NCBI GenBank assembly: GCA_963813715.1 | Contig: CAWFAK010000009.1 | Span: forward strand, 695,613-759,612 | DNA length: 64,000 nt | Direction: 5' to 3' | From: an uncultured Planctomycetaceae bacterium | Lineage (GTDB): Bacteria; Planctomycetota; Planctomycetia; Planctomycetales; Planctomycetaceae | Part shown: piece by piece, positions 59,179-60,561 of the stretch | How positions within the stretch are numbered: the first letter of the stretch is position 1 | Layout: the number at the start of each line of letters is the position of its first letter | Made by a program: the position numbers and the translations under genes | The notes under the pieces: model-generated | Told to the model about the DNA's origin: nothing | Databases searched by the model: none | Seen by the model: the letters and a program-made list of their open reading frames with translations, nothing else

Positions 59179-59353
59179 AGTGGTCGAGTGGATGTTCCGG
59201 GGCTTCCGCTCCGCGGAGCGCCCGGCCACTCTGATGCTCGAAAAAAATATTGTTTCTCGCGTTCATCTCCGGTTGGCGGTCGGCGGGGGTCGGCGTCCCC
59301 CGCCGCCTCCAGTCCGGCGCCGCGGCAGGCACTGCTTGAATGCCCTCGCGGAC

Positions 59354-60339
59354 CAACTTTTTTCATCTCGTGACGTAAGTCGTTTTTTGGCATCGCCGTC
59401 GCAAGGCGGTAAAGATGAGCTTGCCTTGCACCCAGCGGTGGACGCGTCGGTGGCCGCGAACCCAAGCGGGCAGTGCCTGCAATCCGGCGCTCCAAGTGCT
59501 CAAGTATCCGAAGTAGCGTTCGATCGCGTTACGTTCTTGATGGAGGGCACGGCCGAACGAGCTTTGCGGATTCGAGAGCAGTTCAAGAGATCGCAGCCGA
59601 GCGGGACTCTGACGCCGATGGCCACGGCGACGGCCAAATCCGTAACGCGGAGGTGCCACCAGTTGCACGCCGCGTTCGAGGCAGACGTCGTGTAACTGGT
59701 TCGAGTCGAAATTTGCATCGGCGAGCAAGTACCCTTGCACAGCCGCTTGCTTCAACATCCGCCGCCCCATCGCCCGCTCATCCTTTTGCATGGGAGCCAC
59801 GCGCACAGGCAGCGATCGAGCCATCGCTGCCGACCACCGCGTGTAGCTTGTACCCTTTGGCTTTGCAGCCCGCGGTGCGGCCGTACCCAGCTTGCCGGTC
59901 TTTCGAGCAACCGCCGATCGGCAGAGGCTTGCCATCGATCATCCAATACAGGGGTTTGTTCCCACGAGGAGCCAGTTCAGAACGTTCGATCTCTTGCAGC
60001 ATTTGCTGGACCTCGGCACTCCGCAGTCGTCTCGACATGGTGCTCGACGATGGCAATTTGCGGCGACGCTCATGCAGCGGCCAGTTCCGAAGATCGCACG
60101 CCCAGGACACAGGCCGACCGTGCAGAACGGCCCACAGCCAAACCTGCACAATGTCGTCTGCCCCGTATCGTTCTCGCGCCTGCGCAGACGACGCTTGCTC
60201 GCCTGTTTGAGAAGGATCAAAATCGCCTTCCAGAGTTGGTGTTCCACATCCGTCTCCTTTCGTGTGGTTACGATTGAGACTATGTGTAGCACCAACTTTT
60301 TATTACGCAAGTCTTTATGACTCCTCGCGCAAAAAGCTG
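59354..60339 (-). mobile_element. 986-bp DDE insertion sequence (IS982/IS5/IS4-like) inserted in a REP family A loop
   Basis: Ends CAACTTTTT / AAAAAGCTG; 4-bp duplication GGAC (59350-53, 60340-43); removal restores CCCTCGC-GGAC-GCTTCGGGTT; partner REP arm at 60368-60392. Confidence 0.88.
59363..60247 (-). CDS. DDE transposase (DDE_Tnp_1-like); two apparent frameshifts
   Basis: RBS AAAGGAG + GTG; MIDGKPL, AGYG, KGYKLH, LLADANFDS, RNAIERYFG; stop lies within the terminal repeat region. Confidence 0.85.
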
Positions 60340-60561
60340 GGACGCTTCGGGTTCGTGAATGCGACACACCAACCCGAAGCGGTGAGCGAGGGCTCCTCGG
60401 CCGGGTGGCCGCGAAGGCCCGTCCAGCCCAACTGATCCGGCCGCCCCGTTGGCCCGGGGCCAAAAAGTCGCATTCCAGAGTTGGAATTCCGCCGCCCGCC
60501 CGCTAGACTCCGAAATTCGTCCCGAATCGGCGTTTGACCCAAATCTCAAGCTGACACGAGC

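Follow-up and report, generated by a model that had tools for sequence, protein, structure and literature searches.

The insertion sequences (ISs) IS1397 and ISKpn1 insert into the loop of palindromic units and carry two frameshifted open reading frames (ORFs). Insertion into repetitive extragenic palindromes (REPs) has been shown in five IS families: IS3, IS110, IS4, IS256 and IS5 (Tobes and Pareja 2006, PMC1525189). We describe a 986-bp IS that interrupts a REP-like palindrome in a 64 000-nucleotide stretch (the window) of an uncultured Planctomycetaceae bacterium (GCA_963813715.1, contig CAWFAK010000009.1), together with its copies, associated miniature inverted-repeat transposable elements (MITEs) and relatives in other genomes. 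A first-pass annotation of the window had read the IS and two MITEs as a REP-loop-specific system of this lineage, possibly undescribed, and had named IS1397 and IS621 as known cases of REP-targeted insertion, which the 2006 survey confirms (PMC1525189). ISs aimed at REPs have been known in print since at least 2006; the wider interest here is a dyad-symmetric target consensus, in the same register, across a large uncharacterised clade.

Several described systems are close in one respect or another. IS1397 and ISKpn1 (IS3 family; enterobacterial palindromic units) are likewise DDE ISs specific for REP-type palindromes, with the specificity credited to their transposases (PMC1525189), but these transposases belong to the IS3 family, whereas the element described here has a single ORF and its site falls within a stem arm. 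ISRm22 (IS4, Sinorhizobium meliloti) and ISNm1106 (IS5, Neisseria) share the Pfam superfamily of our element (Transposase_11, now DDE_Tnp_1), and their copies lie inside REPs in 10 of 10 cases for ISRm22 and in four of seven and seven of 14 for ISNm1106 (PMC1525189). They come from other IS families and other phyla, however, and the account of them in that survey gives no clade-wide dyad-symmetric 18-bp consensus. All copies of IS621, ISPpu9 and ISPpu10 (IS110 family) are in REPs as well (PMC1525189, PMC12288879, PMC11208160), but they use a DEDD recombinase guided by bridge/seek RNA, are without terminal inverted repeats and differ in their chemistry; nothing like that is seen here. IS1272 (IS1182 family) is a DDE IS that targets inverted-repeat stem-loops, under a model that includes a path with duplication of the loop only (PMC5678879); unlike our element, it replaces the stem-loop, makes no duplication and has targets that vary in sequence (PMC5678879).

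The family closest in layout is IS982, whose members are ~1 kb long with one ORF of ~290 amino acids (aa) and direct repeats of 2-10 bp, have the peculiarity of an atypical DDE motif in which the glutamate is not followed by K/R at six or seven residues, and carry inverted repeats that start 5'-AC in 57 of 69 ISfinder members (PMC7335449). The string 'palindrom' occurs 0 times in the main text of this review, and its account of the family mentions no REP or palindrome targeting (PMC7335449). In the literature (main texts, without supplements; the ISfinder catalogue was not covered) we found no description of such a REP-specific IS in Planctomycetota or for this group. The first-pass suggestion that the system is undescribed agrees with that search and, with ISfinder outside it, is unproven.

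One insertion position in the window and in the genome

The window IS sits in one arm of a REP-like palindrome of ~58-70 bp that holds the target word once per arm, with CCCTCGC on its left, GCTTCGGGTT on its right and a 4-bp target-site duplication around it (Table 1). The junctions read ...GCCCTCGC GGAC / CAACTTTTTTCATCTCGTGACGTAAGTCG ... CGCAAAAAGCTG / GGAC GCTTCGGGTT cgtgaatgcgacacac CAACCCGAAGC GGTGA GCGAGGGC, and the partner arm of the interrupted palindrome follows 3' of the IS at 60371-60393. Direct reading and comparison of the copies bear out the first-pass description of a 986-bp IS that interrupts a CCCTCGC-GGAC arm, with a 4-nt duplication, at the position that both window MITEs also occupy. 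That all three window insertions share one site holds too, and extends to 12 of 12 elements genome-wide. The observation of an IS at a fixed REP position is confirmed; the interpretation first given to it is partly supported.

Copies were sought by blastn in the genome assembly (G000; 7.49 Mb, 18 contigs), which has nine long IS copies that align over 969-988 bases at 98.8-100% identity, along with a 502-bp fragment and three MITE copies. All nine long copies and all three MITEs abut the identical position of a REP arm, while their outer flanks are unrelated, which places the element in the functional class of REP-targeting ISs of Tobes and Pareja (all or most genomic copies inside REPs; here nine of nine IS copies and three of three MITEs). 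Both orientations are used, since five long copies have the CAAC end beside CCCTCGC and four have it beside CCCGAAGC. Identical 4-mers flank six of the eight long copies with both junctions (GGAC, GTGA, TCAC three times and GTCA), and the other two show a one-base mismatch (TGAC/TCAC on contig C5 and GTGA/GTCA on C2). The MITEs are flanked by TGAC/TCAC, GTCA/GTCA and GTGA/GTGA.

Many equivalent arms are empty. Allowing at most one mismatch to CCCTCGC-N4-GCTTCGGG, 54 unoccupied arms are found in the genome (22 exact, 32 with one mismatch), so with the 12 occupied ones about 12 of 66 arms are filled. The arms fall into two kinds by their 4-mer, which is mostly TCAC or TGAC (18 and 13 of 43 strict matches). 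In the window alone, CCCTCGC-N4-GCTTCGGGTT has three unoccupied occurrences (TCAC, CGAC and TGCC), against 0.02 expected from shuffled sequences.

Two other arrangements were seen among the copies. At C8:42862 (locus L022, G000:C8:41882-43846) the IS stops 17 bases short; REP arm plus 4-mer, again exactly 17 bases, comes next, and after it a second copy that is only partial (bases 2-503). Either a rearrangement or an assembly artefact could account for this. At G000:C5:250278-251291 and G000:C7:471810-472824 (loci L005, L031 and L032) there is a different IS from the same clade, whose transposase is frameshifted and ~61% identical. It occupies another small palindrome, GGTCCCAAGC-N4-GCTTGGGACC, with flanks GGGA/GGGA in one copy and TCCG/GGGA in the other, and its C5 copy lies 25 bp from a copy of the first IS.

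Table 1. Features of the insertion site, the MITE locus and the unoccupied REP arms in the window
Feature	Position	Strand	Evidence
Unoccupied REP arm, TCAC	28730..28750	-	pattern search of window
Second REP, with one MITE per arm	34086..34369	+	direct reading
MITE1, 103 bp, flanks TGAC and TCAC (one mismatch)	34097..34199	+	sequence and blastn
MITE2, 104 bp, orientation as MITE1, flanks GTCA and GTCA	34255..34358	+	sequence and blastn
Unoccupied REP arm, CGAC	42157..42177	+	pattern search of window
Unoccupied REP arm, TGCC	42229..42249	-	pattern search of window
Outer half-site CCCTCGC of interrupted REP arm	59343..59349	+	direct reading; identical 7-mer left of the 4-mer at other copies
Target-site duplication copy 1, GGAC	59350..59353	.	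direct reading; single 4-mer at sister-species unoccupied orthologous sites of two other copies
Insertion sequence, 986 bp (canonical copies 982-985 bp)	59354..60339	-	blastn copies; ends are where copies stop matching
Terminal repeat, transposase-distal end, CAACTTTTTTCAT...GACGTAAGTCG, includes stop codon	59354..59382	.	imperfect inverted repeat of other tip CAGCTTTTTGCG...; family alignment
Transposase pseudogene, DDE, three frames	59363..60247	-	ORFs; intact 293-aa version in copy C5
Frameshift: one extra base against eight other copies	59805	.	column 452 of copy alignment
Frameshift: two extra bases against eight other copies	60179..60180	.	columns 826-827 of copy alignment
Conserved subterminal motif, family consensus CTTGCGC..AAAAGGAGTTGG	60292..60314	-	starts 28 nt from upstream tip in aligned relatives; similar word in MITEs
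Terminal repeat, transposase-proximal end, tip CAGCTTTTTGCGCG on minus strand	60315..60339	.	direct reading, copies, family alignment
Target-site duplication copy 2, GGAC	60340..60343	.	direct reading, copy comparison
Rest of REP: inner half-site GCTTCGGGTT, apical loop, partner arm AACCCGAAGC-GGTGA-GCGAGGGC	60344..60393	+	direct reading; related unoccupied REPs fold as long hairpins

A shared target logo in a large clade

Of 5248 candidates, 3397 are relatives of the transposase at E<=0.001. The top 120 of these are mostly ~292 aa long, 58-76% identical and encoded on contigs of ~1 kb, and their source names are only 'hypothetical protein', 'Transposase DDE domain' or 'DDE family transposase'. 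In species-representative genomes we collected 31 loci, 28 of them titled as Planctomycetota lineages (Pirellulales, Gemmatales, Planctomycetales, Phycisphaerae and others) and the remaining three as Myxococcota, Oligoflexia and FCB group. Among metagenome contigs 405 stretches encode a relative, of which the best 80 were kept. A phylum-wide genome search matched two of 401 genomes, which is an undercount (six candidates were scored per genome). Of 41 relatives, six matched. The first-pass annotation had taken REP-specific targeting for a trait of this lineage; it belongs instead to a wide clade, mostly from Planctomycetota and metagenomes.

Junctions were sought in 130 sequences: 29 from genome loci, 80 from metagenome loci, 13 from loci of relatives and eight own copies. 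The anchor was a conserved word, upstream of the gene, that ends in AGTTGG; 90 of the 130 have it, and in 76 of these 90 the architecture is the same, the tip lying 28 nt ahead of (C)TTGCGC. With five mis-parsed rows and four duplicates removed and one own copy added by hand, the set holds 67 distinct sites, 65 of them with both flanks. The upstream and downstream flanks of these sites yield the same logo (Table 2); xCCCTCGC and CCCGAAGC each make up about half of the flanks, and either can stand on either side of the IS. One logo for both flanks, made of two interchangeable half-sites, implies a dyad-symmetric target, CC-N3-GC / K-N-N-M / GC-N3-GG, and this symmetry is in keeping with a transpososome of two-fold symmetry and with insertion in both orientations. 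Collecting homologues and building a target-site logo had been proposed as a check with the first-pass annotation; the outcome is a single register at 67 sites, not random insertion.

Table 2. Flank logo at sites of the IS and its relatives, by position from the junction (upstream flank and reverse-complemented downstream flank, both read towards the IS)
Position	Base	Upstream	Downstream
-11	C	64/67	58/64
-10	C	62/67	59/64
-6	G	63/67	61/64
-5	C	67/67	63/64
-4	G or T	66/67	61/64
-1	A or C	63/67	63/64

Unoccupied sites in a sister species

Eight loci were compared with a sister species of the same genus (G002; flanks 89-97% identical), which is without this IS (the best relative there is 58% identical). 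At three of the eight loci G002 has an unoccupied arm. For example, the C8:402967 site reads CCCTCGC-TGAC-GCTTCGGGTT in G002, with a single 4-mer, where G000 has TCAC twice; likewise, the C7 site reads ...CCCGAAGT-GTCA-GCGAGGG, with a single GTCA where G000 has GTCA twice. The arm at the C12 site (L185:2930-3040) is also without the IS, but 6 nt (TCTCAC) instead of 4 separate the half-sites, which could be slippage or an excision footprint. These comparisons show that the IS entered an arm already in place and that 4 bp were duplicated.

The other five loci read as follows. At the window's own site both the REP and ~110 bp are absent from G002, so the REP itself is an indel between close genomes. 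Seen from the window, the ~110 extra bases (59230-59342) and the whole REP (59343-60393) stand between a polysaccharide-export-like gene and an S20-like gene. The MITE locus (window 34080-34387) corresponds in G002 (L195:2540-2860) to a dense array of other small palindromes, which include TCGAAGC-GGA-GCTTCGA, GTTCCCAAGC-AGA-GCTTGGGAAC and CCCGAAGC-TCT-GCTTCGG. The C2 locus is collinear and has a diverged REP cluster, the right flank at C5 is another IS, and the C11 locus matched G002 on one side only. Intergenic palindrome arrays in these genomes undergo rapid turnover. A large IS-by-IS rearrangement was considered as the source of the mismatched duplication at C2 and rejected as unlikely there, as the C2 flanks are collinear in G002.

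Another short repeat family lies nearby, at window 60937-61000 and 62633-62713, with units of ~38-45 bp and 85-97% identity; it recurs elsewhere in the genome and in same-genus genomes.

The transposase

The window copy is dead: indels of +1 and +2 split its transposase gene into three frames. Other copies of the IS are 982-985 bp long, and seven of the nine copies have one open frame of 323-324 codons; the C12 copy carries a single in-frame TAA. Translation probably begins at a GTG that follows AAGGAG by six bases, for a protein of 293 aa, and the stop codon lies 9 bases inside the terminal repeat.

The transposase of an intact copy matches Pfam DDE_Tnp_1 (PF01609; 48.2 bits, cut-off 23, E 1.4e-12) and the IS982-type domain DDE_Tnp_1_3 (PF13612; 29.9 bits, cut-off 27, E 6.3e-07), as do 18 of 18 aligned relatives. 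No NCBIfam IS family model reaches its cut-off for the intact 293-aa protein: the scores are 52.2 bits against 130 for IS982 (NF033520), 36.4 against 270 for IS1182 and, for the IS5 models, 36.6 against 110 (IS5_3), 29.7 against 140 and 16.5 against 140. The two Pfam matches uphold the first-pass placement of a DDE IS in the IS982/IS5 neighbourhood, while the hidden Markov model classification proposed there comes out divided, with both Pfam domains passing and every NCBIfam family model falling short.

In the alignment of 18 relatives D104 and D176 are invariant and E242 is nearly so, in motifs of the form WMIDGKP, LADxNYDS and AIERxFG. By the conserved columns and the shape of the motifs, D104, D176 and E242 are the predicted catalytic triad. 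Neither E+6 nor E+7, counted from the presumed catalytic glutamate, is K/R: in the consensus AIERxFGNLTNW these residues are L (+6) and T (+7), and this IS has ERYFGYLS. The element therefore resembles IS982 in size (982-986 bp against ~1 kb), in its single ORF (293 aa), in its direct repeat (4 bp, within the 2-10 bp of that family), in lacking K/R after the glutamate and in its Pfam domain. It differs from IS982 in the NCBIfam score and in its tips, which are CAGC, CAAC, CAGG, GAAC, GAGG or TAGG and start with AC in none of 67 upstream and none of 65 downstream cases. There is no solved structure in the PDB among the sequence relatives of the transposase, and tblastn of the transposase against plasmid records gave no match.

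MITEs and the subterminal motif

The MITEs of this genome are 103-105 bp long, are present in three copies with CAAC...GTTG tips and 4-bp flanks, and resemble the IS family in their ends and in a subterminal word. Their layout is a tip, 27-28 nt and TTGCGC(C)AGAAGGGTTTTG at one end, with CAACCAATTGCATGTGACGACGTAAGTCC at the other. Since this layout equals that of the IS family, we take the MITEs to derive from a sister IS by internal deletion; blastn found no autonomous element in this genome that has the MITE tips. MITE1 and MITE2 occupy equivalent positions in the two arms of one REP and have the same orientation. A hairpin-stem insertion model for this pair was rejected, the MITEs being in direct and not inverted orientation.

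The first-pass annotation had noted a second end-like motif inside the right end of the window IS. The motif is present (CAACTTTTTATTACGCAAGTC at 60294-60314, oriented as the left end of the window IS and equal to the reverse complement of GACTTGCGTAATAAAAAGTTG), but it is not an alternative end: it is a subterminal motif at a fixed distance, family-wide, and is kept in the MITEs. Its counterpart CTTGCGC..AAAAGGAGTTGG begins 28 nt from the upstream tip in relatives with differing tips (CAGC, GAAC, GAGG and TAGG), and of the 90 anchored upstream segments 60 have a TTGCGC-like word where it is expected. The motif is also similar to the distal end when that end is read in the same direction (GACTTACG...AAAAAAGTTG). 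Pairing of the inner motif with the tip was considered and is unsupported: the motif stays constant where tips vary, so it is not kept for such pairing. Its retention in the MITEs suggests a putative cis role, in transposase binding or in regulation.

The REP and the place of the 4-mer

Three unoccupied REPs were folded as single strands, and each forms a single long hairpin, with energies of -20.6 to -30.1 kcal/mol and z of -5.3 to -9.1. The 4-mer lies inside the stem, with ~7 bp between it and the foot and ~10 bp between it and the apical part; all of its bases are paired in one of the three REPs, and the other two have a 1x1 mismatch at its centre. The first-pass reading of the 4 nt as a hairpin loop does not survive these folds, which place the 4-mer within the REP stem of each arm. 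Its view that targeting looks positional or structural is not supported either: recognition of a dyad-symmetric sequence, CC-N3-GC/N4/GC-N3-GG, common to both flanks at 67 sites, appears to be at work rather than purely positional or structural targeting. Ten occupied sites were checked by script for a partner arm, which is absent within 80-90 nt at three (C5, C11 and C2); at an eleventh, C7, it is present. The long hairpin is therefore dispensable, provided that no partner arms have been lost since insertion. On its own, one arm CCCTCGC-N4-GCTTCGGG can form only a weak self-pairing, as 2+3 bp (GC/GC and CCC/GGG) around a bulge.

The host repeat shows no link to REP-associated tyrosine transposases (RAYTs): none of the eight Y1_Tnp matches in the genome has a REP core within 1.5 kb, and direct reading of the REP arm consensus finds no GTAG or CGTC word, so the repeat is not a RAYT-associated REP or REPIN (REP doublet forming a hairpin); this concerns the repeat and not the IS. 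The Y1 transposase matches (IS200/IS605 or RAYT type) are at C3:75290, C12:190957, C7:398553, C16:46621 and C8:601996, with three more. Palindromes of the type CCGAAGC-N-GCTTCGG occur near control counts in five genomes with inverted flanks.

Proposed mechanism and alternative explanations

Directly observed are the place where the elements sit, the 4-bp duplication, arms that stand empty, the DDE domain and a flank logo that runs through the family. The element very probably belongs to a site-specific DDE IS clade, distantly related to IS982 and mostly planctomycete, that uses REP arms as landing pads. In the mechanism we propose, the single transposase, a DDE enzyme of RNase H fold, would join both IS ends to the target with a 4-bp stagger at the centre of the dyad-symmetric CC-N3-GC/N4/GC-N3-GG, which in this genome is CCCTCGC-N4-GCTTCGGG. 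As the site is present once in each REP arm, the intergenic repeats would act as many near-identical landing pads. The IS would enter in either orientation, and gap repair would duplicate the 4 bp; MITEs, keeping both termini and the subterminal motif, would be moved in trans to the same sites. We infer that the transposase itself reads the site, as duplex sequence rather than as an extruded structure.

Several points weigh against this proposal. The window copy is broken, and insertion behaviour is read from genome sequences alone; nearly all sites are in palindromic repeats, so genomes alone cannot separate the reading of sequence from that of structure. The bare 8-letter motif is insufficient for this IS, because it occurs 682 times in the genome (196 with K..M), yet 12 of 12 elements are in REP arms. 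Five of the eight G002 comparisons (the window site, the MITE locus, C2, C5 and C11) are uninformative. The junction set leaves out 14 anchored sequences, whose upstream end is longer, and the 40 of 130 that have no anchor owing to contig ends, frameshifts or motif divergence. Its 67 sites are not independent: eight are from this genome, two metagenome loci have the same IS (99-100% identity) and several come from shared metagenome-assembled genomes (MAGs). The 4-mers, finally, are not always clean direct repeats. Among the 11 elements of this genome with both junctions readable, three (the IS on C5, the IS on C2 and MITE1) have 4-mers differing by one base and eight have identical ones, and family-wide a one-base mismatch is found at 10 of 65 sites. 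Near-inverted 4-mers (three or four of four matches) occur at 21 of 65 sites, 16 of these with palindromic flanks.

The mismatches follow a pattern. Nine of the ten in the family are at the second position from the CCCTCGC side, the sole polymorphic position of REP arms, and all three in this genome are of the form CCCTCGC-TGAC...TCAC-GCTTCGGG. The orthologous arm at C8:402967 differs between the two species at that very base, so the position flips easily, and later flips would in principle suffice to explain the mismatched duplications. The inverted 4-mers, e.g. CCCTCGC-TGAC-[IS]-GTCA-GCGAGGG, cannot come from a single staggered cut. One candidate route is a pair of same-orientation insertions in both arms followed by recombination deleting the REP core; the MITE pair in the window is exactly such a starting arrangement. 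Another candidate is one transpososome that takes one half-site from each arm, akin to the stem-loop replacement by IS1272 (PMC5678879). Some extant IS copies are reported to be without readily identifiable target duplications (PMC11708052).

An alternative, which we consider unlikely, is that the transposase reads structure (an extruded cruciform or hairpin of the REP, or the central mismatch at the 4-mer of many REP hairpins) and cuts at a fixed distance from the stem foot. The long hairpins of the unoccupied REPs, two of three with the mismatch exactly at the 4-mer, would suit it, as would the targets of relatives, which vary in stem sequence and yet are mostly palindromic. A model in which IS1272 (IS1182 family) targets stem-loops through attack on a cruciform (PMC5678879) could produce inverted 4-mers in one step. 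On the other hand, the logo fixes letters (CC, GC and K..M in the 4-mer) beyond mere pairing, and a lone arm pairs locally only as the bulged 2+3 bp; the three of ten sites without a partner arm point the same way but are not decisive, as partner arms may be lost after insertion. That the REP arms are instead part of the element, as long terminal inverted repeats from whose IS ends the free REPs derive without any targeting, would agree with inverted repeats that extend 13-18 nt past the tips into the flanks in many relatives (e.g. 35 identical bases in L035). In this genome, however, the CCCTCGC and GCTTCGGG flanks are not mutual inverted repeats, the 4-mer differs among copies and is directly repeated, and orthologous unoccupied arms with one 4-mer exist; elsewhere, one IS in one MAG has differing flanking stems that are matched within each copy (L040, L048 and L054; L049 and L058). 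These observations already contradict such an origin for this IS, and we hold it to be highly improbable. Hardly any room is left for random insertion with survival only of copies in harmless REPs. REPs are intergenic, where the cost of insertion should be small, but selection cannot give single-nucleotide precision: within an arm of ~20 bp, 12 of 12 elements are inserted at one and the same base step, with both orientations represented, and the same register holds at 67 sites of relatives. The exact junction register already contradicts randomness.

Implications

A wider version of the landing-pad proposal is tentative, and we would not yet bet on it: the whole clade (thousands of ~292-aa transposases, mostly from Planctomycetota) may consist of sequence-specific DDE transposases reading an 18-bp dyad site of two interchangeable half-sites (xCCCTCGC or CCCGAAGC), possibly also remodelling their own landing pads. 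If so, paired-arm insertions, or use of one half-site per arm, would delete the REP core and leave an IS with inverted repeats extended by REP halves, and such remodelling would account for the many flanks with inverted 4-mers.

Few DDE transposases pick targets with base-pair precision. A large natural series of related enzymes with the same register and varied half-sites would be useful for learning how a DDE transpososome reads its target, by sequence or by structure. For annotation, the clade would account for ~1-kb elements that break planctomycete assemblies at REPs. For the biology of these bacteria, planctomycete REP families would serve as safe landing pads, reshaped by the elements that use them.

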